A stretch of DNA of 64,000 nt from Anaerotignum faecicola (lineage in GTDB: Bacteria > Bacillota > Clostridia > Lachnospirales > Anaerotignaceae), in the NCBI GenBank assembly GCA_024460105.1, contig JANFXS010000001.1:151895-215894 (forward strand), read 5' to 3'. Below, one piece after another: positions 5,032 through 64,000 of this stretch (its first letter is position 1; each line of letters begins with the position of its first letter). A program made the translations under genes and the position numbers. The notes under the pieces are model-generated. The model worked only from the letters and a program-made list of their open reading frames with translations. It did no database searches and was not told the DNA's origin.

Positions 5032-6049
5032 ATAAATTCCCCTCTCCCAATAAACAATAACATACTCTTACAGTGAAAAATCAGTTCTTGGCCTAATATT
5101 TCCAAGTTAGAATACCGCTAAATCAAATTCTTCAGCTCTGCTGCTTAGTTTTAAATTTCGGCTTTTTAATTTAAAAAATGTATTCCATGAAGCATCGAAA
5201 GCGGTATTATTTAATTACAAATTGCCTCCTCTTTGTGCGCCTCCTTTTTGCCTGATTTTCCTTAACAGAAATTGTGAAGGAAAAAACTATCTGTCAGGTT
5301 GTCAGACCACTATACCAACATACTACATTATTACCAAAAATTTGTAAAGTAGTTTTTGAAAAAAACAAAAAATATTTTGCATGGAAACTGCTTTGTTTAC
5401 GAAACAACCTTATTTTTAAGGTTTTTAAATACCGTTTTAATATAATAACAATAAAAAACATGCCGAAAAAAGTATTTCAAAGCATGTTTTGGATTGTTTT
5501 TCTCAATTTTCGCATGTAAAAAAAATAACAATAAAAGAAAAAATTATACTCTTCAATTATATATAACGTAATATAATAAACACATTATAAATTGTTGCAG
5601 ATTTTAACCGAAATTAATTTCATGTCAGCTTAAACCGATACTAATTGTTTTAAAATTTATTAACAGCTTCGGCTGATTTTAACATACAGCATAGCTCAAT
5701 AGCCGCGTTAAAGCCGCTTGACACAGTGTTTGCCGTTCCTGCTCATCTTTATTTTGCTCTTGCGGCACTGCGGCCCGTTAAAACCTTCCGGCCTAACAAG
5801 TGAAAAATTTCTTCTGTTCAAGATATATATACACAGGCAATCGGCTCCTACGGCAAGCATATGCAACACTGAAATTCGGAAATATTTCATTGCCATGAGT
5901 ATATGCTCCTGTAAACCGAAGTTGCCGTCAATATATTAATTATGTCAATTAATATTCGGCCATTGATATATATAAACTTCCGGGGGGCATAGCGCCTTAA
6001 TATTCCCCAATAATTCCCCTTGCCATGAACAAATCCGGCTTAATTATAA

Positions 6050-6090
6050 ATATAAAAACGGCCGCACAGCAAAGTTCGGCCGTAAATATC
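6050..6090 (-). terminator. Rho-independent terminator at the end of the thi operon
   Basis: Minus strand reads CGGCCGAACTTTGCTGTGCGGCCG followed by TTTTTTAT, 20-60 nt past the HAD gene stop. Confidence 0.6.
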
Positions 6091-6109
6091 TTATACTATT
6101 TAATATTCC

Positions 6110-6742
6110 TTATATAAGCTCTTTATAAGTTTTAATATACATATCGGCCGTTTTAATTATTGTATCCCTATCGTCCTTAGAGCTTTCATCTTCAACGGCA
6201 ACAGTATAATATCCCCTGCCTTTTGCATTTACAACGCCATGGCATGCATCCTCAAAAACAGCCGTATCCGCTGCCGTTCCCCCCAGCCTTTCGGCCGCGG
6301 CGTCATATATTTCGCCGCTTGATTTACTCATGCCAAGTCCCGTGCATGTAAAAATACCGTTTATAAACTTATCTATGCCAAGTCGTTTTACAGCCGGGAT
6401 AACATAATCTTCTTCGGAAGCGGTAAGAATACACATGTTTGTACCCTTTTTGTATTCCTTTTCCAAAAATTCGTACGCATATGGTTTCAGAGGTATTGTA
6501 TTTGCATAGCAGTCTTTAACCATTGATATAATCGACGAAATCATGTGATCAAAACTGCATTCAAGCCCTAAATTTTCGGCGAAATATCGGTGGCTTTCTT
6601 CAAAAGACATAGTTTTAAAAATTTCTTCAATATCTTCCGGCGGCTCAACGCCGTTGTCTTTAAGAAACTTTTTGCCTACGCCGTTCCAAACGGGCATTGA
6701 ATCTATCAAAGTGCCGTCAAGGTCAAAAATTATATTTTTCAT
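6110..6742 (-). CDS. HAD-superfamily hydrolase, probably a phosphatase in thiamine salvage
   Basis: 210 aa. MKNIIFDLDGTLIDS is HAD motif I. It overlaps the thiE stop by 4 nt, so it is co-operonic with thiW-thiM-thiE. Confidence 0.75.
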   Translation of the reverse strand: MKNIIFDLDGTLIDSMPVWNGVGKKFLKDNGVEPPEDIEEIFKTMSFEESHRYFAENLGLECSFDHMISSIISMVKDCYANTIPLKPYAYEFLEKEYKKGTNMCILTASEEDYVIPAVKRLGIDKFINGIFTCTGLGMSKSSGEIYDAAAERLGGTAADTAVFEDACHGVVNAKGRGYYTVAVEDESSKDDRDTIIKTADMYIKTYKELI

Positions 6743-7359
6743 TTTCCAGTCATCTCCTCAGAAAGCTTAAGGAGTTCTTTTGCGGCGCAATATGCATCAT
6801 CCGCGGCAAACAAGGCGGAAACTACGGCTACACCGTCCGCTCCGGAGCCTTTAAGTTCCAATATATTATTTTTGTTAATTCCGCCTATGGCAACCACCGG
6901 AATAGAAACGCTTTCCGTAATTTTTTTCATTTCTTCAAATGTTACGGCCGTAGCGTCCAATTTAGTATCTGTATGGAACACGGCCCCGACGCCTATATAA
7001 TCCGCACCGTTTTTTTCAGCCTGCAAAGCTTCTTCAAAGTTGCCTGCCGAAATACCGATAATTTTATCTTCTCCCAGTATCTGCCTTGCCTTCCTTGCCT
7101 CCATATCGCTTTGTCCAATATGTACTCCATCGGCGTCGACAGCTTTTGCAACTTCTATATTGTCATTGATAACAAACGGGACTTTGTATCTGTCTGTCAC
7201 TTCCTTGATTTTTTTAGCTTCGGAAATAAATTCCTTTTCCGAAATGTCTTTTTCCCTCAGTTGGACAAATGTCGCCCCTGCCTTTAAGATTTTTTCAACT
7301 TCGTCTTCAAGCTTTCTGCCGTTAAGCCATGTCCTGTCAGTAACGGCATATAAAAGCAT
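6739..7359 (-). CDS. thiE: Thiamine-phosphate synthase
   Basis: TMP-TENI fold motifs (LYAVTD, VQLREKD, GADGVHIGQSD). The ORF-track start at 7404 overlaps thiM; an internal Met at about 7359 (MLLYAVTD) is the more likely start. Confidence 0.8.
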   Translation of the reverse strand: MLLYAVTDRTWLNGRKLEDEVEKILKAGATFVQLREKDISEKEFISEAKKIKEVTDRYKVPFVINDNIEVAKAVDADGVHIGQSDMEARKARQILGEDKIIGISAGNFEEALQAEKNGADYIGVGAVFHTDTKLDATAVTFEEMKKITESVSIPVVAIGGINKNNILELKGSGADGVAVVSALFAADDAYCAAKELLKLSEEMTGK

Positions 7360-7366
7360 CGTTTCT

Positions 7367-8206
7367 TTATCTAACTTCAATTTTAGCGCCCTCCTTAAAA
7401 ACATCCGCCGTCATTTTGCTTACATAATCAATAAGGTGCATACGGAAAGACGACGTTCCTCCTTCAGTTTCAACTGTTTTTTTGTAAGCAAGCTCGCCTG
7501 CATATCCAAAACTGCTTACGGCAACAGCAGCCGCGTTAAGTATATCGTCGGGATTTGCCGAACAAAAAACGCCGATTAAACTTGAAAGCATGCATCCGGT
7601 TCCCGTCACCTTGGACATAATATTGTGCCCGTTTTTGATTATATAAGCTCTGGTACTGTCTGATATTATATCAAATTCACCGCTTATGGCAATAACCGCG
7701 CCTGTTTTTCTGCTTAATTCTTTGGCAAATCCGACTGTTTTGTCCAAATTTTCATATGTAACTTTATCGTTTTCATCCGCGTCAACGCCTTTAGCCGCAC
7801 CGCTTCCGGTAGCTAAAAATTTAATCTCCGATATGTTTCCCCTGATAACGGAAAAATTTACATTTTCCATAAGTTTAAAAAGGACGCTGTTCCTTTTTGC
7901 CGCCGCCCCTGCTCCAACAGGATCAAGCACTACGGGATGTCCGATATTGTTGTTCATTTTTCCCGCCCTGATCATGCTTTCCACCAAGTAATCGCTTATA
8001 TTCCCCATGTTTATAACAAAACCCGCGCATGCTTTTGTTATATCCTCTACCTCGTCGGGATTATCCGCCATTGTAGGGGAACCGCCGGCGGCAAGCGTAA
8101 TATTGGCGCAGTCATTTACAGTTACGATATTTGAAATATTATGTACTATAGGTTTTTTATTTTCAATATTTTTAAATATAACCTCCGCATTTTTAAATAA
8201 ATCCAT
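7367..8206 (-). CDS. thiM: Hydroxyethylthiazole kinase
   Basis: 279 aa with clear ThiM-family similarity (NIVTVNDCANITLAAGGSPTMAD, GTGCMLSSLI). Confidence 0.85.
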   Translation of the reverse strand: MDLFKNAEVIFKNIENKKPIVHNISNIVTVNDCANITLAAGGSPTMADNPDEVEDITKACAGFVINMGNISDYLVESMIRAGKMNNNIGHPVVLDPVGAGAAAKRNSVLFKLMENVNFSVIRGNISEIKFLATGSGAAKGVDADENDKVTYENLDKTVGFAKELSRKTGAVIAISGEFDIISDSTRAYIIKNGHNIMSKVTGTGCMLSSLIGVFCSANPDDILNAAAVAVSSFGYAGELAYKKTVETEGGTSSFRMHLIDYVSKMTADVFKEGAKIEVR

Positions 8207-8208
8207 AA

Positions 8209-8709
8209 TTATTCAGCCTCCTTTTGAAGTTTGTAAAGTATACCTGATTTTTTCATTGCCTTTAAGAGTACGACGGCGCACAGCGATCCGAAACATGTGC
8301 TTATCATAAATGCCGGAATATATGTAAATACTGCTACGCCCGGTGTTCCATAATAAAATTTGGCAAGAGGATAAGAGCAAAGCGCACCCAGTATCCCTGT
8401 ACCGAATATTTCACCGCCTACGGCCGCCCACATATTTTTTGTTTTGCCGAAAAGCACAGCCGCCAAGAATGCTCCTATAAGCCCTCCCGGGATTGAAAAC
8501 AGATCCTCTCCCATAATAACAAGCTTCATAACGGTTAAAAGCACAGAACATACGAAACCGTATACGGGCCCGAGAAGCACAACGCCCGAAACATTAATCA
8601 AATGCTGCATTGGAGCCGCATAACCGGGTATCCTGAATATCGGAGTCAGAACAAACCCTAATGCTGCCCATACCGCTGTGAGAACAAGTTTTTTTGTTTT
8701 TGAATCCAT
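8209..8709 (-). CDS. thiW: ThiW, the substrate-specific (S) component of an ECF transporter for a thiazole/thiamine precursor
   Basis: 166 aa membrane protein of the ThiW family. It is the first gene of the thiW-thiM-thiE-HAD operon. Confidence 0.7.
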   Translation of the reverse strand: MDSKTKKLVLTAVWAALGFVLTPIFRIPGYAAPMQHLINVSGVVLLGPVYGFVCSVLLTVMKLVIMGEDLFSIPGGLIGAFLAAVLFGKTKNMWAAVGGEIFGTGILGALCSYPLAKFYYGTPGVAVFTYIPAFMISTCFGSLCAVVLLKAMKKSGILYKLQKEAE

Positions 8710-8867
8710 TTTTATTCCTCCTTATAATAAAAAATTTTTTTATTTTGCAGGCCTTATATTCAATACATATTGATGCTATATTTATTATTTAAATCAAAAC
8801 AGCCTAATTATAATGTCGAACATACCGCCTGCTATAATTTACATTATTTTCCATAAAAACAGCAAAA

Positions 8868-8912
8868 AATGGGCCACACCCGCGGTGGTGTGCCCCATAG
8901 ACTGCAACGTTT
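8868..8912 (-). terminator. Rho-independent terminator downstream of the PPIase-like gene
   Basis: Minus strand reads GGGGCACACCACCGCGGGTGTGGCCC, a 10-bp GC stem, followed by ATTTTTTGCTGTTTTT. Confidence 0.6.
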
Positions 8913-9108
8913 ATTAAATTATATTTATTATAAATAACCGGGATAAGTTTGTCAATAAAAAATCAACGCCGCTTAAAATTAAAACTGTAAACACTGTATC
9001 GAATCCTACGGCCATTCGTCTTAAAAATGTTTCTTCAAAAACTCAATTCATGGTTCCACGCCATATCTTATAAGTTTCACGGCATAAGTAAAAATGTCTG
9101 TAATACTC

Positions 9109-28743: not shown

Positions 28744-28985
28744 AACAAATCCCCTTTGTTTATAATATTTTTCAGTATTAATATTATATTTCCGAAAATA
28801 CTCAAACATAATCGTATATATTTTACCACATTATTACATTAATAAACAGATGTTTTTGCTTTGCGCTTTTTTATTAGAATTAAGGTTAAAACTATTCCGT
28901 CGTTCTGCATTTCCATTAAAAATTCCATTTACGTACAATAGGATTATATATCATGTCCCATATATAAAAACATGCGGCTTCGCTT

Positions 28986-29255
28986 TACATGGCGCGCATG
29001 CCCCGCAATGAAAAATTTTCCGCATTTACGTTCTGCATACGCTTGCCGTAGGATCCGCACCGCCGGCGCGTATGCGCCTTGAAGCGCAAAAATTTTTTCC
29101 TTGCGAGGCCGAATAATTTTAACGGACGAGCGGCGTAAGGTCAAGGCAAATACGTACAGGCGTACCGACTCCCACGGCAAGCGGCTTCAGCACGGCTGTT
29201 GTGCCGCTGACGCCCGTTAAAACCGCGTGCGCTCTTGTAAACCGAAACTGAGAGT
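28986..29255. repeat. Copy 1 of a roughly 270 nt GC-rich dispersed intergenic repeat, possibly a structured RNA or a MITE/BOX-like element
   Basis: Shares long identical blocks with 57335-57600: GAAAAATTTTCCGCATTT..., GCATACGCTTGCCG ... CCGGCGCGTATGCG, CGCAAAAATTTTTTC, GAGGCCG, TTTTAA(C/T)GG ... CGCCCGTTAAAACCGC..TGCT.TTGTAAACCGAA. Conserved internal inverted complements surround a divergent core. Confidence 0.7.
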
Positions 29256-29427
29256 CCGTCCGAAAAATTCATCCGCGCCTCTGCTTTAACCATTCTTAAA
29301 AAAATTGTTATGCGAGCTTGCATCCGAACCGCCGTCCTGCCGTATTCGTTCAAAAAGTTCATACCATTGTAAAAATAATCCCGGCTAAAAAACCCACGCC
29401 GGCAAATTCGGCATGGGCTGTATGATA

Positions 29428-30222
29428 TTACACTATACAAGCTTGTTGGAAAGCATTTCTTCCAAAAACTATATCGACGAAAATATTATCAAGTTCTTCA
29501 AACGACTTATAATTTCTCTCCGGCAGGAAATCGGCAAGACCTTTAAGATCAAGAAGCTGGTTTTCTATATATCGGTTTATACTGTCTATTCTTTTTACGC
29601 TGCCGTACTCTTTTGAGTTTCTTTTCAGGCTGAGCAGGTTTAAAACTTCCTCCTTAACGCTCCCGTCTAACTGCGATTCCACAAGTCTTTCAAACTCCAT
29701 GGGAGACGGCGCGCCCTTTTCAGCAATCCATCTGCATGCAAGCAGAGGGCGCAAAACATAGAAATATTTTTTTATTTTAACTTCGCCGCCTTTCAGGTAT
29801 TCCCTGTAATTGCCTTTGGCCATGCTTAAGTAATGCCAATAGCCGGCCCTTGAAGTAAAATACATATTTATGATTTTTTCCACTTTCCGCCATTGCGGGC
29901 TTGAACAGTATACCACAGGAGAATTGGCCCATTCAAATATCGTAGGGTTTGATTTATGAAGCAGTCTTAAAGCCTTTTTCAAATCCCATCCGTTTATATC
30001 AAGCGTTTCATCAAGCTGCCATTCTATTACGTCCTTCGTTTTTTCAAGCTTTAAATAGTATTCAGGTTTGCGCACATATATAAACCTAACGTCATAGTCG
30101 CTGTCGCATGAAGCAAATCCCCATGCGCGGCTGCCCGATTCGGCGGCATAAATTATCTTTACATTTTCCTTTTCCTCTATTTCTTCAAGCTTTTGCCTGA
30201 TTAAATTCCGCACTGCACACAC
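29428..30222 (-). CDS. Pol-beta-superfamily nucleotidyltransferase (COG3541-like)
   Basis: 264 aa. N-terminal GSRAWGFASCDSDYDVRF is a GS...D.D nucleotidyltransferase motif. It lies 8 nt downstream of rtcB on the same strand. Confidence 0.6.
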   Translation of the reverse strand: MCAVRNLIRQKLEEIEEKENVKIIYAAESGSRAWGFASCDSDYDVRFIYVRKPEYYLKLEKTKDVIEWQLDETLDINGWDLKKALRLLHKSNPTIFEWANSPVVYCSSPQWRKVEKIINMYFTSRAGYWHYLSMAKGNYREYLKGGEVKIKKYFYVLRPLLACRWIAEKGAPSPMEFERLVESQLDGSVKEEVLNLLSLKRNSKEYGSVKRIDSINRYIENQLLDLKGLADFLPERNYKSFEELDNIFVDIVFGRNAFQQACIV

Positions 30223-30229
30223 TCCTTCC

Positions 30230-31453
30230 TTATTCCACGGCTTTAAAATTATAGAGCGGCTTTATTTCTTTTATTATCTTTGCCGTAGGGAAAATATTTT
30301 TAACTATATCGTTTTTATCTTTATACGCCATAGGGCACTCGTCAAGCGTAAGGCTATTAACCGACGTAGTGAAAATACCTTTCATTTCATTTTTAAACTC
30401 CTCAACGGTAAACGTTTCGTTTGCTTTAGAACGGCTGTAAAGCCTCCCCGCCCCGTGCGGAGCGGAAAAATTCCATTCGGGATTTCCTTTTCCGACACAA
30501 ATAAGGCTTCCGTCGCGCATGTTAATCGGTATCAGCATTTTTTCGCCGCTCAATGCCGAAACAGCTCCTTTTCTTATGATATTGCTGTTGTGATCCACAT
30601 AATTATGGACTGTTTCAAAGCTTTCAAAATCATCAGGAGATTTATCAAACATATTTTTCAATATAAGCTCCGCTATTACAGAACGGTTAAGCGCGGCGTA
30701 GTCCTGGCATATTTCCATATCCTCAAGGTACATCCTTCGGCAATCTCCCGTAAGATAGCAAAGCTCCTTGGGGACGTCAATCTCTTTTTCTTTCCAATCT
30801 TTCATAAGTTCTTTAATTTTACCTTGTATCTCTTTTCTTCTTCCTGCTGCTTTATATTCGGCTATAATCCTATCTTTTTCCTCAAAAAACTTATCCTTTC
30901 CCTTCATAATATCATATGCAAGGCTCTGATAATACTCCGCAACCTGCTTTCCCAAGTTCCTGCTGCCCGTATGGATAACAAGGTATTTATTGCCGTTTTC
31001 ATCACAGTCTATCTCTATAAAATGGTTTCCCCCGCCTAAAGTTCCGATACTTCTTTCAATCCTTTTTGTATTTTTCAACATTCTATAACAATTCAAATCC
31101 ATTAAGCGCCCATATCTTACAATTCGCCCTTCATGGGTATTCTTACCGCTGGGAACAAATTTTCTTATAACGTCGTCAAGCTTTTCAAAATCTATTTCCA
31201 TATCCCCAAGCTCTACCGTAAGCATGCCGCATCCTATATCGATGCCAACTATGTTTGGTATAACTTTATCGCCGAGATCCGCCGTAAATCCTATAACGCA
31301 CCCCGCGCCTGCATGCACGTCCGGCATAATCCTTATGCGGCTTCCCTCGGCAAAACTTTGATTACAAAGCTTTTGTATCTGTTCCAATGCATTCTCCTCA
31401 ATTTCATCGGCATATGCCACAGCCATGTTATACCTTCCAACTATCTCTTTCAT
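30230..31453 (-). CDS. rtcB: RtcB-family RNA 3'-phosphate ligase
   Basis: 407 aa. GIDIGCGM metal site, SAPHGAGR (catalytic His/GMP site) and HNYVDH. Its start directly abuts the SPFH gene stop. Confidence 0.9.
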   Translation of the reverse strand: MKEIVGRYNMAVAYADEIEENALEQIQKLCNQSFAEGSRIRIMPDVHAGAGCVIGFTADLGDKVIPNIVGIDIGCGMLTVELGDMEIDFEKLDDVIRKFVPSGKNTHEGRIVRYGRLMDLNCYRMLKNTKRIERSIGTLGGGNHFIEIDCDENGNKYLVIHTGSRNLGKQVAEYYQSLAYDIMKGKDKFFEEKDRIIAEYKAAGRRKEIQGKIKELMKDWKEKEIDVPKELCYLTGDCRRMYLEDMEICQDYAALNRSVIAELILKNMFDKSPDDFESFETVHNYVDHNSNIIRKGAVSALSGEKMLIPINMRDGSLICVGKGNPEWNFSAPHGAGRLYSRSKANETFTVEEFKNEMKGIFTTSVNSLTLDECPMAYKDKNDIVKNIFPTAKIIKEIKPLYNFKAVE

Positions 31454-32548
31454 TTACATTCCCTCCCTGAACGCCGCCGAAAGCTGCGCCAACAAATCAT
31501 TATTCCCATTTAAATTAATGTTTCCCACATGCGAACATATCTTCTCAATATATTCCAGTTCCTTCAGCTTATAAAGGGTTTTATTTTCATCCATAAGCCT
31601 TGCCGTATTAAGAAGCGAACGTGTGGACGCTACTTCTTCCCTGCGGGTTATAACGTTTGCCTGAGCCCTTTTTTCGGCTATAAGCACAGTATTCATAATA
31701 TCGCGTATCTCTCCCGGGAGTATTATATCCTTGACCCCCGCATCCTTTACGCTGATATAATAATCATTCTCCTTTTCTTTCAGCTTTTCAAGCACATACT
31801 TAGATATTATGTCTTTATTTTCCAGTATCTCGTCAATTTTATGCCCGCCCGACACTTCCCTTAAAGCGAGCTGTACCATTACATGTATATGATTTTCGTA
31901 ATTGTCTACGGAAGCTTGTTTTATAAAATCGGTAATACTATAGCTTAAAACAAAATTAACCCTTATGGTTACTTTATCCTGTGTAAGAACCTCCTGTCCG
32001 TTTATATTCATTTGTATAAGCCTTGTATCCGCAAACTCTGTCCTGATCCTGTCGTTAAGTTTCCAAAAATAATATGTTCCCGCTTCAAGAAGCCTCTCAA
32101 ATTTATTGTCAATATATAGCCTTGCTTTTTGATATGGAGCAACGTCTGATTTTATATAAAGCTCTTTCGGAAGCTTTGAAAAAATATATTCAGGTATCTC
32201 TTCGGCCGTTTCCGGAATTGACATATCGTATACTTTAAATTCATGTTTATGAAGCAAATTCCAAAAAGCATGTTTGCCGCACAAAAGAAAGCCTGCATAT
32301 TTGCCGTCGATATAGTGGAGCGCTATTTCCTGATCCTTTACATCAATAACGTCTGCCTCCTCCGATATTATTTCGTCCTTTAAAAGTGTTTCCAATGAAC
32401 ATAATTCCGAAAAAATCGGGCCGTTTATATCCACGGTTTCTATCCTGCGTCCAAAAAACGCATAATATTTACCGTCTTTAAGCGCCTTCACAAAGCTTCC
32501 GTTTTTAAAAAGCAATCCTCTTTCTTCATTACTAATTGTTGTCATCAT
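31454..32548 (-). CDS. SPFH/band-7 (stomatin/slipin-like) domain protein
   Basis: 364 aa. The central region VNFVLSYSITD...QLALREV...LIAEKRAQANVITRREEVASTR matches the SPFH core plus its coiled-coil tail. No N-terminal TM is apparent. Confidence 0.55.
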   Translation of the reverse strand: MMTTISNEERGLLFKNGSFVKALKDGKYYAFFGRRIETVDINGPIFSELCSLETLLKDEIISEEADVIDVKDQEIALHYIDGKYAGFLLCGKHAFWNLLHKHEFKVYDMSIPETAEEIPEYIFSKLPKELYIKSDVAPYQKARLYIDNKFERLLEAGTYYFWKLNDRIRTEFADTRLIQMNINGQEVLTQDKVTIRVNFVLSYSITDFIKQASVDNYENHIHVMVQLALREVSGGHKIDEILENKDIISKYVLEKLKEKENDYYISVKDAGVKDIILPGEIRDIMNTVLIAEKRAQANVITRREEVASTRSLLNTARLMDENKTLYKLKELEYIEKICSHVGNINLNGNNDLLAQLSAAFREGM

Positions 32549-51753: not shown

Positions 51754-53859
51754 TTAATTCCGCCTTTTAAACTTAAATGCCGTAACAAGCCCTGACATTA
51801 AAACTACAGCCGATACTAAAATCAATATTATTGCCGCCTTATCATTTTGTCCGTCCTGCATATCCAGTTCGGGAATATTTCCGGTTACATTTAAAGATGT
51901 TCTGTTCTTTGGTTTTATATCTGAAGCCGCATTTCCCCAGTTTCCGTTCTGCATGTTAAATTTGTCCGCCACACTATTCCCATCTCCGCCGCCCGTCTGC
52001 ATATTGCCGTCTATTGAAACCGTTTGTTCTGCCTGTATTCCGCCGTCAACCGCATCATATTCTCTTTTATTAAAATAGTTATTTTCCGTAGAATTTTCCG
52101 TTTTGTTTTCCGAATTTTCAAAATCAGGATTGTTTTTCCAAAATGGATTAAAATTTTGTTCTTTTACGTTTTCAGGGTTCCCTATTCCCGCTCCCATGGA
52201 CCCCATGGCCGAAATGTCAATATCATAAGATCCGATAAACGGATCGTTTTCATTTTCGCTCCCCTCTTGTACAGACGGTATACTTCCGTCAAGCTGTCCC
52301 CTAATGCTTTGCGCCCTCGCAATGGAAAATTCTTTGAGGACATTGAACCCTTTTTCAAATTCATCATATGTGCAGAATTTTGTAGGATCTTTTTGTACAT
52401 AGGGCGAAATCATGCTGTACACAGAATCCATCATTTCTTCAAAATAACCGCTTTCAAAATATCCCGATATAAATTCATCAAAATAACTGTGATACGTCTG
52501 CGTATACCGTTCATCTGCAAATATCCATGCAAGCATCGGACGCGACTCCACAGTACCGCCAAAAACAGGCGTATCAATAGGATAATTTATAAGGCTTTCC
52601 GCGTCAATAGACGACTGAAACCCTCCGAACGCAAGATTATAGTCCCAAGGTATCATAGAAAGTTTTCCGTCTTTCTCATATAAATAGTAATTATGGATTA
52701 TGGAACCTGTATAGCTGTCAAAATTACATACAAAATTATGAACGACAAAATATCTGATAACTTCATCGACGTCAACCACATTTTCAATATCTGTATTTTC
52801 ATTAAGCAGTTTAATGGAGTTTATAAGGCGTTTTTTGTCTGCATCATCAATATCTGTTTTTGCATTGTCAAATATGTTGCCGTAACTTTCAAACTCATCG
52901 TTTGTGTATATAAGGGAAACGTCGTCCCCTCCCATTACGCCGCGGTTTTCATGGAAAGGCGCGCCGTTTTCCCCCTCACTGTCCGTTTCTGAAAATCCGT
53001 GCTCAAAGCCTTCTTCCACCGCGGCGACGCTTTTGTCCTCCGCTGTTTCCCCCTTTTCATTAGGAATATCTATTTCTTCCGTTACGGTATCAGCCGTTTC
53101 TGCCCGCTGTCCGCTCGGCCCGTCAATATTGCCGCTTTCTTCATGCGACGGCATTTCTGCCTTCATCAAGTTTTCAAAGTTGTGCTGCGCTTTATCTTTA
53201 AATCCGTCTTTATTTCTTTCAGGGCCGCCGCCTATATTTGTGCTGTCAGGTTTATAAATCTCGCCGTAATCACTTCCGTAATTGCGTTCAAGGAAACTTT
53301 CTTCAACTCCTTCAACTGCAATATAAAGCCCCCATTCCTCTCCGTTGACAGTTATATATACAAAACTGCAAAGCGGAGCGTCAACCCCAAAATATCCCAT
53401 CATTTGGTATGTAAGGTAATCCTTCATATAAGTATTGTCCTGAATTACATTATTGAGCACCAGTTTATCGAGTCCGTGGTAAGTTTTCGTATCGTCATAG
53501 TGGTCGAACTCAATTTTAAAGCTGTATCTGTTATTGCCGTATGCCGCAACCTGCATTAACGAGGTGTTTCCCTTAGCCCTTATAGCTGCATTTTTGTAAG
53601 ACTCGCCGTCAATTACAATGGCACATTCCGCATATTCTTCATTTTCACACGTTTCAATGAAACTTTCCCAGTCGTCCATAACAATATCCAGCGTGTGTAC
53701 ATATGAATCGTTAAATATCCTGTCCTCATAACCCATTTTGCCGGCGGACGTTTCTATTCCAAACTTTTCACCGTTAATAAAAACAGCGGTTAAAGCAATT
53801 ACTGCGGCAATGGCAATACAGCATACTTTGTCAATATACTTGTGTGTAGACATCCGCAT
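51754..53859 (-). CDS. CotH-family protein (atypical kinase fold) with an N-terminal signal/TM and a C-terminal TM anchor
   Basis: 701 aa. CotH core (YHGLDKLVLNNVIQDNTYMKDYLTYQMMGYFGVDAPLCSFVYITVNGEEWGLYIAVEGVEESFLE), a long low-complexity region, and a terminal TM helix. Confidence 0.75.
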   Translation of the reverse strand: MRMSTHKYIDKVCCIAIAAVIALTAVFINGEKFGIETSAGKMGYEDRIFNDSYVHTLDIVMDDWESFIETCENEEYAECAIVIDGESYKNAAIRAKGNTSLMQVAAYGNNRYSFKIEFDHYDDTKTYHGLDKLVLNNVIQDNTYMKDYLTYQMMGYFGVDAPLCSFVYITVNGEEWGLYIAVEGVEESFLERNYGSDYGEIYKPDSTNIGGGPERNKDGFKDKAQHNFENLMKAEMPSHEESGNIDGPSGQRAETADTVTEEIDIPNEKGETAEDKSVAAVEEGFEHGFSETDSEGENGAPFHENRGVMGGDDVSLIYTNDEFESYGNIFDNAKTDIDDADKKRLINSIKLLNENTDIENVVDVDEVIRYFVVHNFVCNFDSYTGSIIHNYYLYEKDGKLSMIPWDYNLAFGGFQSSIDAESLINYPIDTPVFGGTVESRPMLAWIFADERYTQTYHSYFDEFISGYFESGYFEEMMDSVYSMISPYVQKDPTKFCTYDEFEKGFNVLKEFSIARAQSIRGQLDGSIPSVQEGSENENDPFIGSYDIDISAMGSMGAGIGNPENVKEQNFNPFWKNNPDFENSENKTENSTENNYFNKREYDAVDGGIQAEQTVSIDGNMQTGGGDGNSVADKFNMQNGNWGNAASDIKPKNRTSLNVTGNIPELDMQDGQNDKAAIILILVSAVVLMSGLVTAFKFKRRN

Positions 53860-53865
53860 GCCCCC

Positions 53866-54561
53866 TTATCCCATATAATCGCCGTTATAGCTTACAAGCA
53901 CCGCGCTGTTTACCCCCTCCAATTCAGAAACGGCATTAATAAAATCCGTGCCGCCGTCTTTCAGCCTTATTTCAAGGTTAAGTTCTACAGAACCTTTTTG
54001 GACGGTCTTGCTTTTAACAACGCATCTTTGCACCATGCCTTCAAGAAATTCCATTACGGCTTTTTCGCTTTGACTGCCACAGCAGTTTATGACAATTATA
54101 TATGGGTTTAAATATGATTTTTTGTTGCTGAATATAAGAAGGATAAGCCCTATAACAACGCTTCCTATTACGGCAAGAGGAATCATCCCCGCTGCAAGCA
54201 CAATGCCTACCGCTATCGACCAAAAAAGGAAAGCTATATCAAGCGGTTCTTTAATAGCCGTACGGAAACGCACAATAGAAAGCGCGCCTACCATACCTAG
54301 AGAAAGCACTACATTGCTTGTTACCGCCAGTATTACAACCGTTGTTATCATAGTAATGGCAACGAGCGTGACTCCGAAGCTTGAAGAATACATTACGCCT
54401 GTAAATGTTTTTTTGTAAACCATAAATATAAAAAGCCCAAGTCCAAACGCAAGCGTTAATGCCAAAGCCATATCAAATACGCTTATACTCGCAACATTTT
54501 CAAGAAAGCTTGATTTAAATATATCATTAAAAGTCATATTAATCCTCCTTAATACTATCAT
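53866..54561 (-). CDS. DUF4956-like integral membrane protein
   Basis: 231 aa, multiple TM helices. Sits between the VTC gene and CotH, which is the reported CotH neighbourhood. Confidence 0.55.
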   Translation of the reverse strand: MIVLRRINMTFNDIFKSSFLENVASISVFDMALALTLAFGLGLFIFMVYKKTFTGVMYSSSFGVTLVAITMITTVVILAVTSNVVLSLGMVGALSIVRFRTAIKEPLDIAFLFWSIAVGIVLAAGMIPLAVIGSVVIGLILLIFSNKKSYLNPYIIVINCCGSQSEKAVMEFLEGMVQRCVVKSKTVQKGSVELNLEIRLKDGGTDFINAVSELEGVNSAVLVSYNGDYMG

Positions 54562-55229
54562 CCATATATACGGCAGGCGGCATATTTTGAAAACGCTGTT
54601 GTCCGGCGGCCGTCAAGCTGTATTATATCTTTTATTACAGACGGAAGAAACTCATCCCATTTTACTTCAAGTATTATATATTCCCTTCCTGCGGGAACAG
54701 TTACGCAATCCGGATTCAGAAAATCCGTACATCCAAGCCCTGTCCTTATGCTGTAATCTATAGTAACCCTAACATTGCCGGGAGAATATACAAATGCTTC
54801 CCGCGTATAATCGACTATTGTCTTTGGACGCAGGCCCTGACTTTTCATTTTGCAGTAAAGTTCTTCAACCGTCCCTCTCCCGCTTTCAATCATCCAGTCT
54901 GTTATCCCATCTACTATAAGCTGAGCTTCCTTTTTTGAAATCACGGCTTTATCCTTTTTGCCAAGCCCGTTGATTTTACTCTTCTTTTCAAGATGTATAA
55001 ACGAAGTGTCGTCGTTATAATACCTTATGCGGAATTTTTCACGCCTGTTAACGCCGTCTATTTTCTCTCTCAAAGCTTTATCCGAAGGGCTGTCAAAATA
55101 AAGGCTTCTGATTTTATACCGGCCGTCAACGGAGTTTCCGTCCGTTTTTGCCACCGCCCTGAGCCTTTGGCGTACCGCTATCATATCGCATATATTTATT
55201 TCATGTTTCCATTCATGCCTAAAATCCAT
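54558..55229 (-). CDS. VTC-domain (CYTH-like, polyphosphate-polymerase-type) protein
   Basis: 223 aa. Pattern of charged beta-strand residues (HEWKHEI..., RIRYYND..., E.K...) consistent with a VTC/CYTH domain. Overlaps the next gene by 4 nt. Confidence 0.6.
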   Translation of the reverse strand: MDFRHEWKHEINICDMIAVRQRLRAVAKTDGNSVDGRYKIRSLYFDSPSDKALREKIDGVNRREKFRIRYYNDDTSFIHLEKKSKINGLGKKDKAVISKKEAQLIVDGITDWMIESGRGTVEELYCKMKSQGLRPKTIVDYTREAFVYSPGNVRVTIDYSIRTGLGCTDFLNPDCVTVPAGREYIILEVKWDEFLPSVIKDIIQLDGRRTTAFSKYAACRIYG

Positions 55230-55349
55230 ATGGCATCAGTCCTTTTCTTTAATTTTACTTATATTTTACACCCCCAACCTTAACCGTAACTTAGAAAAAA
55301 ATACCCGCGCCGAACAAAAGCGCAGGTATTGTGTTAACAATTTGTTAAT

Positions 55350-56579
55350 TCAGATTCTTACTTTAAAAGAAATTTCATTTCCTTTCCTATATTCGGCAGT
55401 AATTTCTCCTTTTTGAATTTCAACTATAGCCGCCGCAACCGAAAGTCCGACGCCATATCCGCCGTTTTTCTGGGTTCTCGCGCTGTCGCCCCTGTAAAAA
55501 CGGTCAAAAAGTTTTTCCGGACGCCCTTCCGGCAAAAAACTGCATGTATTTTTAATACAAAATTCGGCCCCGCTGTCATTCCTTTTAAGCTCAATGTCTA
55601 TACGCCCACCCTTATCCGTATATTTGGCGGCATTATCAAGAAGTATCGAAATCAACTGTATTATATTTTCCTTATTCGCGTATACGGCCACATCCTGTTC
55701 TATATCGGCTTTAATTTCCGTGTCGTTAAGCTCCGCAAGCTCATAAAAAGGTTCCAGCATTTCGGCAAATAACCCGCTTAAAGAAAATCTCTCCCGCGGG
55801 AAGCCGCCGCCTTCGTCCATTTTTGCAAGTGTAAGCAGGTTTTTCATAAGTCTGTCAAGCCTTTCTGTTTGAGATCTTATATTCCTGCTCCATTTATTCC
55901 CGCCGTTGTGCAGTTCCATAGCGTCGACATTAGCCATTATGATGGCAAGCGGGGTTTTTATTTCATGTCCGGCATTTGTAACAAACTGTTTTTGTTTTTC
56001 AATATTTGCGGCTATTGGGAATATCGCTTTTTTTGAAAGCGCCGCTACAAGAAGAAGCATAAGCGTCCAACATAAGATACCCACTGAAACGGAAATAACC
56101 ATTACGATAAATATAGAGTACAGCTGTGATGAAGTATCAAGGAACACTGACATAATCTCACCGCTTACATTTTCTGTCACCTTATATTTAAATCTGCCTT
56201 TGCTCCCGCTTTTCCTTCCACCGCTCAATATTTCATCTGCAATTTCTTCCGCTTCCGCCGGCGTTACCGATGAAATACGGCTTACGTCAGTTTTTATTAT
56301 ATTTCCGTCGGAGTCTGAAAAAACAATAAAATACCTTGCCGACATGGCGTCGTCTTTGTCAATAGGCGGAGCAAAAAAATTCGGTTTCCTGCCTTCGCCG
56401 GGGTTTATTTTCGGAGGAAACATTCCCATGTTTTCCGTAAGGGCCAAAATCATTCCGTCGCTTTGCTTGTCCGTTATATAATAGTTTGCAGCGTTGATTG
56501 CCCCGACTAATACAATCAGAAGTATTGACACTGCCGACATTGCAGTTATTATAAACTTTTTTTGCAGGGTTTTTATCAT
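55350..56579 (-). CDS. Sensor histidine kinase
   Basis: 409 aa. Two TM helices, H-box HEIKTPLAII, and N, G1 and G2 boxes. Confidence 0.85.
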   Translation of the reverse strand: MIKTLQKKFIITAMSAVSILLIVLVGAINAANYYITDKQSDGMILALTENMGMFPPKINPGEGRKPNFFAPPIDKDDAMSARYFIVFSDSDGNIIKTDVSRISSVTPAEAEEIADEILSGGRKSGSKGRFKYKVTENVSGEIMSVFLDTSSQLYSIFIVMVISVSVGILCWTLMLLLVAALSKKAIFPIAANIEKQKQFVTNAGHEIKTPLAIIMANVDAMELHNGGNKWSRNIRSQTERLDRLMKNLLTLAKMDEGGGFPRERFSLSGLFAEMLEPFYELAELNDTEIKADIEQDVAVYANKENIIQLISILLDNAAKYTDKGGRIDIELKRNDSGAEFCIKNTCSFLPEGRPEKLFDRFYRGDSARTQKNGGYGVGLSVAAAIVEIQKGEITAEYRKGNEISFKVRI

Positions 56580-57250
56580 ACCGCGGCCTCCAAAGTATAA
56601 CCTATATTCCGTTTGGCTTTAATCTCAACCTTCCGGCTTAGCGACGATAATTTTTTCCTTAAATACGATATATAAACCCAAACAACCCCTATTTCCGCAT
56701 CCGTATCATATCCCCAAACTTTGGCAAGCAGATCTTCAGATGAAAGGTACCTTCCCTGATTCAGCATTAATATCTCCATAAGCCTGTATTCAAGATTTGG
56801 CAGCACATATGATTTTCCGCCGCCGCTTAATTCGTAACTGTGAAGGTTAAGGGATACATCGCCGCATGTGAGTATATCCGGCGTAAATTCTTCACGACGA
56901 CGCAGCATAGCTCTTACCCTTGCCAAAAATTCTCCCATTGCAAATGGTTTCGGCAGATAATCGTCGGCGCCGAGATCAAGGCCATATATCCTGTCCTCAA
57001 TTTCGCTTTTTGCCGTTAAAAGTAATACCGGCGTATATATACCGTCTTTTCTGAGCTGCTTTAATACCTCAAGCCCGTCTTTTTTCGGCATCATAATATC
57101 CAGTATAATTCCATCGTAATGCTCCGCACGAGCGTATTGCAAAGCCTCTTCCCCGTCATAAACGGCGTCAACCGTATATTTATGATACTCAAGTATATCC
57201 ACAACCGCCTCTGACATAGCCTGTTCGTCTTCCGCAAATAACAGTTTCAT
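56576..57250 (-). CDS. OmpR-family response regulator
   Basis: 224 aa. Receiver domain (DD..D...K) and a winged-helix output domain. Confidence 0.9.
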   Translation of the reverse strand: MKLLFAEDEQAMSEAVVDILEYHKYTVDAVYDGEEALQYARAEHYDGIILDIMMPKKDGLEVLKQLRKDGIYTPVLLLTAKSEIEDRIYGLDLGADDYLPKPFAMGEFLARVRAMLRRREEFTPDILTCGDVSLNLHSYELSGGGKSYVLPNLEYRLMEILMLNQGRYLSSEDLLAKVWGYDTDAEIGVVWVYISYLRKKLSSLSRKVEIKAKRNIGYTLEAAV

Positions 57251-57334
57251 ATCAAATCACCCTTTTATATTATATCACGCAAACCTTAGCAAAAACTTAG
57301 AATATATAAAAAATTCCGTTAGTTTCGGTTTTCA

Positions 57335-57600
57335 ATGGCACACAAGCCCAGCAAGGAAAAATTTTCCGCATTTCCATGTTGCATACGCTTGCCGAATGAG
57401 CCGATACGCCGGCGCGTATGCGTTTCCAACCGCAAAAATTTTTTCTTTGTGAGGCCGGAGAGTTTTAATGGGCGTTAGCGACTTAAGAACAATGCGAAAG
57501 CGCGCTAGGCGCAGAAAATTAGCAGGGGCTTTAACGCAGATATTTCGCCGCCAACGCCCGTTAAAACCGCATATGCTATTGTAAACCGAAGCTAAACTCA
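57335..57600. repeat. Copy 2 of the roughly 270 nt GC-rich dispersed repeat
   Basis: Block-wise near-identity to 28986-29255 with a divergent central core. Lies between a minus-strand terminator (57598-57640) and the start of the response-regulator gene. Confidence 0.7.
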
Positions 57601-57640
57601 TATAAAAAAGCCCTTGTATTTAACAAAGGCTTAGTATGTA
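57598..57640 (-). terminator. Rho-independent terminator of the P1-peptidase gene
   Basis: Minus strand reads GCCTTTGTTAAATACAAGGGC followed by TTTTTTAT. Confidence 0.6.
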
Positions 57641-61834: not shown

Positions 61835-62032
61835 ATGCAGAAACAGAGTTTTATGCGAGCAGACGAAGTTGCTCAAGAATTGGGCATCTCCAAATCCCAC
61901 GCCTACAAGGTAATCCATGGGCTTAACGAAGAATTGCAGGAGAAAGGATATTTGACCATCTCCGGCCGTGTCAATCGAGAATTCTTTAGGGAGAAGTATT
62001 ACTATACCAAAACAGCAAAGGAGGAGTCATAA
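61835..62032 (+). CDS. Excisionase/HTH_17-like small DNA-binding protein
   Basis: MQKQSFMRADEVAQELGISKSHAYKVIHGLNEEL... with a GGAAGG RBS. Immediately upstream of, and overlapping by 1 nt, the integrase gene. The track start at 61790 is probably too early. Confidence 0.55.
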   Translation: MQKQSFMRADEVAQELGISKSHAYKVIHGLNEELQEKGYLTISGRVNREFFREKYYYTKTAKEES

Positions 62033-63105
62033 TGGCCGTTTACAAGGAAGAAAAAACCGGCACCTGGCGAGCAGTTTATCGCTATACCGACTGGAATGGT
62101 GAGCGGAAGCAGACCCAGAAACGCGGTTTTAAGACCAAGCGAGAGGCACAGGCCTGGGAGCGTGAACAGATTCATAAAACCAGTGCCGACCGGGATATGA
62201 ACTTCAAAAGCTTTGTGGAACTTTACACAGCGGATATGAAGACCCGGCTCAAGGAAAACACTTGGGCCACAAAGGAGCATATTATCCGCACCAAGCTGCT
62301 CCCCTACTTCGGCAAGCTGAAGATGTGTAACATCACCGCCCAGCAGATTATCACCTGGCAGAACGAGATGATGAACCATAAGGATGAAAATGGGCAACCT
62401 TATTCACCTGTGTACCTTAAGACGGTTCACAATCAACTCAGTGCAATCTTTAACCATGCAGTACGGTATTACAATCTCCGTGATAACCCTTGTAAAAAGG
62501 CAGGCAGCATGGGGAAAAAGAAAAACCGAGAGATGATGTTCTGGACTAAGGAGCAGTATTTGAAATTTGCCGAGGTGATGATGGATAAACCGCTATCCTT
62601 CTATGCCTTTGAGATGCTTTACTGGTGCGGTATCCGAGAGGGAGAACTTCTGGCTCTGACCCCGGCAGATTTTGACTTTGAGAAGCGCACTGTCACCATC
62701 AACAAATCCTATCAGCGGCTAAACGGGCAGGATTTGATTACCACTCCAAAAACAGAAAAGAGCAATCGTGTCATCACTATGCCGCAGTTTCTGGCAGAGG
62801 AAATTCAGGATTACCTCAAAATGCTCTACGGCATTGGAGCAAATGACCGAATGTTCACCGTCACCAAGAGTTATCTCCACCGGGAGATGGATAGAGGCTC
62901 CAAAGAGGCCGGAGTCCCGCGTATCCGAATCCACGATATTCGTCACAGCGCAGTTTCGCTTTTGATCGACATGGGGTTCTCCGCCACAGCCATCGCAGAT
63001 CGGGTGGGTCATGAGAGCATCGACATCACTTACAATTATGCACACCTGTTTCCGTCCAAACAAACGGAAATGGCAGATAAATTGAATATGGAAAGGGGCA
63101 ATTAA
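62032..63105 (+). CDS. int: Tyrosine site-specific integrase
   Basis: 357 aa. N-terminal SAM-like domain, then a catalytic domain with R...HDIRHS...ITYNYAHLF (the R-H-R-Y tetrad). Confidence 0.9.
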   Translation: MAVYKEEKTGTWRAVYRYTDWNGERKQTQKRGFKTKREAQAWEREQIHKTSADRDMNFKSFVELYTADMKTRLKENTWATKEHIIRTKLLPYFGKLKMCNITAQQIITWQNEMMNHKDENGQPYSPVYLKTVHNQLSAIFNHAVRYYNLRDNPCKKAGSMGKKKNREMMFWTKEQYLKFAEVMMDKPLSFYAFEMLYWCGIREGELLALTPADFDFEKRTVTINKSYQRLNGQDLITTPKTEKSNRVITMPQFLAEEIQDYLKMLYGIGANDRMFTVTKSYLHREMDRGSKEAGVPRIRIHDIRHSAVSLLIDMGFSATAIADRVGHESIDITYNYAHLFPSKQTEMADKLNMERGN

Positions 63106-63107
63106 AA

Positions 63108-63443
63108 ATGTCAGCAAAAAATTTGGATAAGCACAATCGTTGGAGAAACAAGGCCGTATCTTTCCGGGTCTCCCCTGAGGAGGATGCCCAGATTGAAACA
63201 GCAGTCAAGCTCATCGGACTGACCAAGCAGGATTATATCATCCGTCGGCTGCTCTGCCGGGATGTGGTGGTGCAGGGAAATCCAAGAGTCTATAAGGCAC
63301 TGCGAGATCAGCTGGCTGCTGTGCTGGACGAGCTGCACCGTATTGAAGCCGGGCAAGGAGTAAATGAGGAACTGTTGGACACCATTCAGATGATCACAAC
63401 CATTATGAAAGGAATGCAGGAGGATATTGCCTATGATCGATGA
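63108..63443 (+). CDS. MobC-like/RHH mobilisation accessory protein
   Basis: 111 aa. KAVSFRVSPEEDAQIETAVKLIGLTKQDYIIRRL resembles MobC family proteins. Confidence 0.45.
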   Translation: MSAKNLDKHNRWRNKAVSFRVSPEEDAQIETAVKLIGLTKQDYIIRRLLCRDVVVQGNPRVYKALRDQLAAVLDELHRIEAGQGVNEELLDTIQMITTIMKGMQEDIAYDR

Positions 63444-64000
63444 AAAAAAGAAAATGACCACCCATGCTTCATCTGTTGGCGCAGACGATGGGCAGTCAAT
63501 CTCTAAAAACTCTGACATTAGTATAACCACTTCTAAGGAAGAAATCAACGATGAAGTTGTAAATCCTCAGGAAAGCCTGGAAGAAATGTACCGCAAGATA
63601 CAGCGCATGAGCGACCCAGCTTACCTGCACACTGTAACCCTGGACGAGCTGATGGACAATGTGTTTGAGGTAAAGTCTGCGGTGATTGAAAACCTGCTCT
63701 ATACTGGAGCATATATCCTTGCCGGAGCGCCCAAAATCGGCAAATCTTTTCTGGTGGCGCAAATCGCCCACCATGTCAGCACTGGGCAGGATTTGTGGGG
63801 CTACAAAGTTCATCAGGGAACAGTCCTCTATCTTGCTTTGGAAGATGACGAAAGCCGTTTGCAACGCAGGATGTTCCGCATGTTCGGTGTGGAGGGGACA
63901 AGCTCTCTCCACTTTGCTACCAGTGCCAAGATGATCGGCAGCGGTCTGGATGAACAACTTGAAAAATTTGTCCGTGAACACAGCGACACCAAGCTCATTA
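63433..64000 (+). CDS. Partial CDS: AAA_25/RepA-like ATPase (primase-helicase-type) of the mobile element, truncated by the window end
   Basis: Frame open from ATG at 63433 to the window end. It is absent from the ORF track because it has no stop in the window. Walker A LAGAPKIGKSFLVAQIA and Walker B LYLALEDDE. Confidence 0.6.
   Translation, partial: MIDEKKKMTTHASSVGADDGQSISKNSDISITTSKEEINDEVVNPQESLEEMYRKIQRMSDPAYLHTVTLDELMDNVFEVKSAVIENLLYTGAYILAGAPKIGKSFLVAQIAHHVSTGQDLWGYKVHQGTVLYLALEDDESRLQRRMFRMFGVEGTSSLHFATSAKMIGSGLDEQLEKFVREHSDTKLI

Follow-up and report, generated by a model that had tools for sequence, protein, structure and literature searches.

In the available descriptions, ERIC/IRU, Ypal, EFAR, SMAG and REP/BIME sequences are imperfect intergenic palindromes that occur in either orientation and are restricted to a species or genus, and ERIC-type repeats are thought to act, if at all, as hairpins in read-through RNA. 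BOX elements are assembled from boxA, boxB and boxC modules, with a variable number of boxB. Prokaryotic MITEs are shorter than 500 bp, non-coding and intergenic, carry terminal inverted repeats of ~4-30 bp and have a stable fold; they are typically, though not obligatorily, AT-rich, and their target-site repeats fade in old copies (PMC10969869). In this study, we describe a self-complementary non-coding repeat of ~270-285 bp with at least four copies in ~82 kb of a human-gut Clostridia genome. Our preferred reading, to which we give a probability of roughly one half, is an old MITE/ERIC-like palindromic intergenic repeat family of small to moderate size that is limited to this species. The family is undescribed, and it is of a kind that is familiar among bacterial intergenic repeats.

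The window, by which we mean the whole 64,000-nt stretch of DNA analysed, has ~40% GC, a strong negative GC skew and nearly all of its genes on the minus strand, and it is a Firmicutes-type chromosome segment. Exact protein matches put it at ~926-990 kb of a metagenome-assembled contig of 2.016 Mb, and its proteins carry the name Anaerotignum faecicola at NCBI. It was extended by ~8.4 kb to the left and ~9.1 kb to the right via loci fetched with window proteins, which gives the ~82 kb considered here. Three copies of the repeat lie in the window and a fourth to its left (Table 1), and searches with nhmmer --max and a covariance model detected no further copy in the window or in the right-hand extension. 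Positions 28974-29256 are homologous end to end to 57318-57600 (nhmmer E ~1e-90), with 74.7% identity over 273 aligned columns, as expected from the earlier note on this DNA, which had reported two copies with shared blocks. The third copy, described there as partly inverted, is indeed homologous but turns out to be a full-length minus-strand element. It looked partly inverted because the element itself is palindromic, so that its parts also match in the other orientation; its 3′ end has been rearranged or deleted.

Pairwise identity between loci ranges from 60 to 76% among the four copies, and the family is therefore old. All four are intergenic, they occur in both orientations and their flanks are unrelated, while the homology among them starts and stops at the terminal inverted repeat (P1). 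Because the ends are defined at P1 and the flanks are unrelated, we regard the repeat as a discrete element and not as a segmental duplication. A local segmental duplication or chance similarity could be proposed on the grounds that the known copies are all found within 82 kb and that pattern scans found none elsewhere, but those patterns miss copy 4, and hence diverged copies, and the E-values run from 1e-43 to 1e-90. With four copies in unrelated flanks, one of them inverted, and homology that stops exactly at the terminal repeat, such a reading is hardly credible and is effectively refuted already by the defined ends and unrelated flanks. The proposal of a dispersed element with internal complementarity thus holds (four copies, defined ends, compensatory changes). 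GC content of the element is 42-55%, against mostly 25-35% in the flanks, with one flank at 44%. The short ORFs that overlap it are spurious, as had been suspected: they are frame-inconsistent between copies and lack homologues, with no match among 5.8 billion proteins when one of 89 aa was used as bait.

Table 1. Positions of the repeat copies, of their parts and of contig ends that fall inside the element (window coordinates unless a locus is named).
Feature	Position	Strand	Remarks
Copy 1, whole element	28975..29250	+	276 nt; nhmmer E = 4e-90; CM R1 318 bits; 55% GC, flanks 26% (left) and 44% (right)
Copy 1, P1 5′ strand (CTTCGCTTTACATGGCGCGC...)	28975..28997	+	pairs with 29227-29250; consensus helix 1
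Copy 1, arm A, long imperfect hairpin	29000..29109	+	helices 2 and 3; opposite-strand nhmmer self-hit
Copy 1, arm A stems			outer GCAATGAAAAATTTT / AAAATTTTTTCCTTGC; inner GCATACGC / GCGTATGC; conserved apical block TTGCCGNANGANCCG
Copy 1, arm B, TTTTAACGG...CCGTTAAAA stem around the most variable segment	29116..29223	+	helices 4-7
Copy 1, P1 3′ strand (...GCGCTCTTGTAAACCGAAAC)	29227..29250	+	
Copy 2, whole element	57320..57594	+	nhmmer E = 1e-90; CM 272 bits
Copy 2, P1	57320-57343 with 57571-57594	+	
Copy 2, arm A	57346-57455	+	
Copy 2, arm B	57462-57567	+	
Copy 3, full-length decayed element	~5652..5924	-	nhmmer E = 2e-79; CM 213 bits
Copy 3, P1 5′ strand	5924-5901	-	
Copy 3, arm A	5898-5791	-	
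Copy 3, arm B	~5784-5675	-	
Copy 4, full-length, more diverged	L073:15781-16047		4.7 kb left of window; E = 1e-43; CM 238 bits
Contig ends inside the element	29226, 29236, 57366, 57389, 57394 (twice), 57526		

The copies share one architecture, in which P1, a terminal stem of ~24 bp, closes two long imperfect hairpin arms to give a Y shape. The P1 consensus (CTTCGGTTTACAATGGC... / ...TTGTAAACCGAAGC) comprises 20 consensus pairs with 88% of cells paired, and arm A has in all copies an outer stem of A/T tracts, an inner GCATAYGC stem and an apical block that is conserved. Each of the four copies contains P1, arm A and arm B once, in identical order. Variation between copies consists of substitutions and small indels at a constant module number, and the BOX-like modular build that had been envisaged is not seen, since the parts are constant in order and number in every copy. 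As to the conserved blocks of complementary sequence, the pair GCATACGC...GCGTATGC is found at 29035-29075 and 57381-57421, where zero chance matches are expected. The second pair is also found, as TTTTAAYGG...CCGTTAAAA at 29117-29222 and 57463-57566 (zero chance matches expected), except that copy 2 reads TTTTAATGG, which makes a G-T wobble, and not TTTTAACGG. The central segment, which had been called completely different between the copies, is their most variable part and yet can be aligned, with a block, CGGCTTTAACRCGGCTATTG, common to all copies. The supposed restart of the 5′ block at 29262-29285 comes down to a 12-nt match with an indel (GAAAAATT..CCGC). A similar instance is found at 37320, within a gene that is unrelated; nhmmer --max and the covariance model both passed over the match at 29262-29285, and we leave it out of the element.

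Pairing is partially maintained across the copies. In an alignment of five distinct sequences, the 78 consensus pairs are 86% paired, compared to 36-46% when the partners are slid by 1-3 columns. Compensatory changes on both sides that keep pairing were seen at 12 pairs versus 1-5 in the slid controls, a comparison of low covariation power with five sequences, and the observed pairing or covariation score was reached by 0 or 1 of 500 shuffles of these same five. The copies differ in how much of the fold they have kept: copies 1, 2, 4 and 3 preserve 97%, 88%, 78% and ~70% of the consensus pairs, respectively. This unevenness is expected if the individual insertions are not all under selection. 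MFE z-scores of copies 1 and 2 range from -2.6 to -4.2, with copy 2 at -4.1 (plus strand) and -4.2 (minus strand); the fold of copy 3 is weak (z = -1.3), and a consensus fold built from copies 2-4 alone is poor. Conserved sequence resides mostly in the stems and less in the loops or junctions.

Such a pattern invites the question of whether the repeat is an undescribed structured RNA, that is, a ~280-nt three-way junction of P1, arm A and arm B present in paralogous copies, with the interior of arm B free to vary. The low MFE z-scores of copies 1 and 2, the preserved pair cells together with the compensatory pairs and the rarity of shuffles that do as well, the presence of every copy in all strains examined, and the GC-rich islands in mostly AT-rich flanks, a common hallmark of structured RNA in AT-rich Firmicutes, are all in its favor, as is the distribution of allele differences discussed below. 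We nevertheless hold it to be possible rather than probable, though a serious alternative. The conservation lies mainly in stems, not in loops or junctions; 22-30% of the pairs are gone from copies 3 and 4; ~110 kb of related genomes lack the element; and covariation computed from five distinct sequences carries little statistical power. At the gathering threshold of Rfam 15 only three tRNAs are found in the window. With E up to 10, copies 1 and 2 gave chance matches only (12-23 bits) and the locus of copy 4 none, so the comparison with Rfam that the earlier note had proposed brings up no relevant family at that threshold.

Signals that would assign the element to a strand are contradictory. 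The consensus folds of the two strands are mirror images of each other and equally good. G-U outnumber A-C combinations by 33 to 18 on the sense strand, a count made for a structure predicted on that same strand, whereas MFE prefers the strand opposite to the element sense in three of the four loci (copies 1, 2 and 4). Put in terms of the chromosome, MFE is lower on the minus strand of the window at 4/4 loci, regardless of element orientation. This bias is more easily reconciled with chromosome-strand mutation bias than with a functional RNA strand that is always the same, and it is also what read-through from minus-strand genes would produce. No strand asymmetry was found to follow element orientation. 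Neither a sigma-70 promoter nor an intrinsic terminator exceeded shuffle expectation at any copy, and no promoter- or terminator-like site is conserved between copies. The idea of a structured RNA with a variable domain is consequently not borne out by an Rfam match, by promoter or terminator signals or by an orientation-linked strand asymmetry. Separately, the sequence ATATATAAAAA is located at 28962-28972 and 57305-57315, 9-12 nt ahead of P1 in copies 1 and 2. Read on the minus strand, it is a U-run, UUUUU(U)AUAUAU, that comes 5-7 nt past P1, and it is not found in this form at copies 3 and 4.

Strain variation provides a second view of the same stems. Approximately 29 assemblies of the three window loci all carry the element in colinear alignments of 95-100% identity, with neither an empty site nor an inversion among them. 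Copies 2, 3 and 4 are nearly invariant across strains. For copy 1 there are two alleles, of which 8 loci carry that of the window and two (L004:9554-9838 and L009) the other. The alleles differ at 21 positions within 29009-29226, most of them in arm B (29112-29226), and copy 1 is the densest cluster of differences in a 20-kb locus that overall differs by 0.9% (99.1% identical). When they are placed on the consensus structure, 3 of the 155 paired and 18 of the 123 unpaired positions carry a difference; with the own fold of copy 2 as an independent structure, they fall on 6 of 178 paired versus 15 of 100 unpaired positions (p = 0.0007). This avoidance of stems, as judged on predicted folds, points to present-day structural constraint at the copy 1 locus and is the best evidence for it. 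The loops are not clearly hypervariable, since the adjacent DNA outside the element, within this patch of divergence, differs by ~3.7%. Both alleles have changed, given that roughly half of the differences in either direction agree with states found in other copies, and gene conversion from unseen family members possibly lies behind these changes. A diversity-generating retroelement was rejected as the cause of the allele differences, which are substitutions of mixed types and not adenine-specific.

Seven contigs assembled from short reads of independent samples stop within the element (L009, L077, L063, L064, L058, L059 and L060; positions in Table 1), which suggests the behavior typical of repeats, or else alleles that co-occur. 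One of them, L077, from a variant with 97%-identical RlaP, yields no new allele because its contig ends there. The allele pattern allows a tentative broader proposal, which we would not rate as probable: a functional, undescribed structured nucleic acid with helices selected today and the interior of arm B diversifying, be it a three-way-junction RNA of ~280 nt with several paralogous copies or a fold-dependent mobile element without target-site duplication.

The near-equal folding of the two strands and the conservation of stem sequence are also what double-stranded or cruciform recognition would call for. The repeat could then be a site that works at the DNA level, such as a switch that inverts, a target of recombination or protein binding, or a cruciform or single-stranded structure with a part in replication or recombination. 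T- or Y-shaped hairpins are used by some single-stranded DNA systems, and the nested palindromes and terminal repeats seen here resemble them. We find this quite improbable all the same: no assembly contains an inverted segment (29/29 intergenic alignments are colinear), no recombinase gene is adjacent, the copies lie 10-28 kb apart among housekeeping genes, and plasmid and phage records hold no match. REP/RAYT and IS200/IS605-type ends, integron attC, retron or omega RNA, and plasmid single-strand origins or promoters were also considered and dropped, since size, context or adjacent genes would not fit.

The position and orientation of the copies relative to neighboring genes are not constant. 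Copy 1 is between an RtcB-RlaP pair and an SDR/sigma-54-activator pair. Copy 2 lies ahead of a response-regulator/kinase operon and starts 5 nt from the intrinsic terminator of the upstream peptidase gene, which occupies 57608-57632 on the minus strand. Copy 3 is between a thiamine/HAD operon and ETF genes, in the opposite orientation relative to its neighbors, and copy 4 is between convergent FBPase and DUF1292 genes. The copies are thus intergenic, as first described, while their placement upstream of minus-strand genes holds only loosely, given the opposite orientation of copy 3 and the convergent genes around copy 4. Copies 1 and 2 share the same relative orientation and end 165 nt and 69 nt, respectively, upstream of the start of the next gene. 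These two could therefore be minus-strand cis-acting leaders or attenuators of the SDR/sigma-54-activator genes and of the response-regulator/kinase operon, with copies 3 and 4 as dead duplicates. The UUUUU(U)AUAUAU run after P1 on the minus strand of both, their more stable minus-strand fold and a promoter-like site (TTTATA-17-TACAAT) that overlaps P1 of copy 2 would agree with this. The downstream genes are, however, functionally unrelated, a gap separates the U-run from the stem, copy 3 runs opposite to its neighbors and copy 4 lies between convergent genes. Moreover, copy 2 abuts the terminator of the upstream gene and so leaves no room for an upstream promoter, and in close relatives the element is missing from the same response-regulator/kinase pair. 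A leader function is accordingly improbable.

Several features of the surroundings are recorded here in their own right. Directly upstream of copy 1, a Band_7 - RtcB - RlaP string of the RNA-repair type extends over 29428-32548 on the minus strand. A Y RNA tied to these RNA-repair genes was considered and rejected, as only one of four copies is nearby and no Y-RNA-like Rfam match exists near RtcB-RlaP. The response regulator and histidine kinase downstream of copy 2 are the first genes of an operon that also encodes VTC-domain, DUF4956 and CotH proteins (51754-57250, minus strand), and in the closest relatives that pair instead follows a RelA/SpoT-domain gene. Copy 3 sits in an unusually long AT-rich intergenic region (5032-6109, 1.08 kb), where ~620 nt that separate the copy from the ETF genes are unaccounted for. 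A 400-nt gap, 8710-9108, precedes the thiW-thiM-thiE-HAD thiamine operon (6110-8709, minus strand) and has no Rfam match to a TPP riboswitch even at E up to 1, which is unexpected for a thiamine operon. At the right end (61900-64000), an integrative element with a tyrosine integrase (62032-63105), a NikA-like protein and an AAA_25 ATPase is located beside guaA and a small HTH gene (also in L014, L016 and L076). Its GC content reaches 45-48%, its GC skew flips, and beyond the window it continues with a DNA methylase and an Eco47II-type restriction enzyme. A similar integrase module is found beside guaA in two other genomes, so the site looks like an integration hot spot.

In the mobile-repeat reading that we prefer, the family would go back to a non-autonomous mobile element, formerly able to spread, of the MITE, ERIC or "stem-loop repeat" kind. 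Its dispersed copies in both orientations, inverted termini, lack of coding capacity, uneven decay, inconstant placement relative to genes, missing transcription signals and restriction to this species in the data searched agree with a small palindromic intergenic repeat, and its size, terminal-repeat length, AT-rich intergenic setting and stable fold fit the published account of prokaryotic MITEs (PMC10969869). Its mobility probably relied on the terminal repeats, perhaps in a folded single-stranded form, being recognized by an enzyme acting in trans, and insertions would have landed in AT-rich intergenic DNA near terminators. The copies would now be fixed and diverging, with copies 3 and 4 visibly decaying, and any copy read through by neighboring transcription would endow the RNA with a highly stable hairpin. 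In the window the terminal-repeat motif is found only at the ends of the element (4 matches vs 0.2 expected). For the hallmarks of transposition itself, no consistent flanking direct repeat of at least 3 bp was detected at any boundary offset in any copy, the sole match being TATA in the AT-rich flank of copy 4. As such repeats fade in old copies, the missing target-site duplication weakens the case for a MITE without excluding it. Neither a related transposase nor a solitary terminal repeat was found in the 82 kb examined. Pairing in copies 1 and 2 is also better kept than neutral decay would give, which speaks against the mobile reading, as do the GC-rich composition, the lack of an empty site in ~29 assemblies and the stem-sparing allele differences of copy 1. 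The lack of a target-site duplication, the GC-rich composition and the Y-shaped double hairpin mean that strict MITE membership is not established.

Searches beyond the locus were made with sequence patterns and profiles. The scan pattern TGCATAYGCTTGCCGNANGANCCG fits all three window copies; it had 0 matches in species-representative genomes, and in metagenome contigs its matches were confined to the loci of copies 2 and 3 in this same species. A looser pattern, GCTTGCCG..AGGCCG..TTTTAA, gave 1 chance match in viral contigs and 38 in genomes, all nhmmer-negative. Copy 4 fits neither pattern, and the scans would thus miss diverged members and set no limit on the copy number. A blastn search in distant mode with copies 1, 2 and 4 produced no match among phage or plasmid records. 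Five related genomes (GuaA 82-88% identical) contain no element in the ~110 kb around guaA according to nhmmer and the covariance model; two of the five have the same response-regulator/kinase pair with a different upstream neighbor. The sequence blocks of the element were not found in the full text of papers. In the data searched, the family so far appears confined to this species.

Should the repeat be no more than an old palindrome, its importance is mainly practical: it disrupts short-read assemblies of a common gut bacterium and yields spurious ORF calls, and the two sharply different alleles of copy 1 could serve as a strain marker. If its stems are truly selected, it would represent either a large structured RNA not described before or a novel mobile element that depends on its fold, in a gut lineage that has been little studied, and the copy 1 alleles would be a natural test of which structural parts matter.

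How the element relates to described systems can now be stated. Paralogous sRNA families resemble it in their diverged intergenic copies, GC-rich on an AT-rich background, with some compensatory changes. It differs from them in having no promoter or terminator signal above chance, no assignable strand, no conserved single-stranded seed and no Rfam relative, and in not being conserved outside the species in the data searched. With BOX of Streptococcus pneumoniae it shares the composite intergenic layout of conserved blocks and a more variable middle, but its parts occur once each in a fixed order. Compared with ERIC-type families, it has no sequence similarity and no RAYT-type transposase was seen; at ~280 bp it is twice the size of ERIC and ten times that of REP, and it is built from three helices, not a single hairpin. 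MITEs are set apart by their target-site duplications and cognate insertion sequences, of which none was seen here, by presence/absence polymorphism, also not seen, and by a simple hairpin in place of the two nested long palindromes that form the interior of this GC-rich element, the copies of which are 60-76% identical. Like the MITEs Correia/NEMIS of Neisseria, RUP of Streptococcus pneumoniae, bcr1 of the Bacillus cereus group and QMITE of Coxiella, on the other hand, it is a non-coding element of <500 bp with terminal inverted repeats, here ~24 bp long, it is dispersed in several copies over AT-rich intergenic sites, and as a transcript or single strand it would form a highly stable stem-loop.
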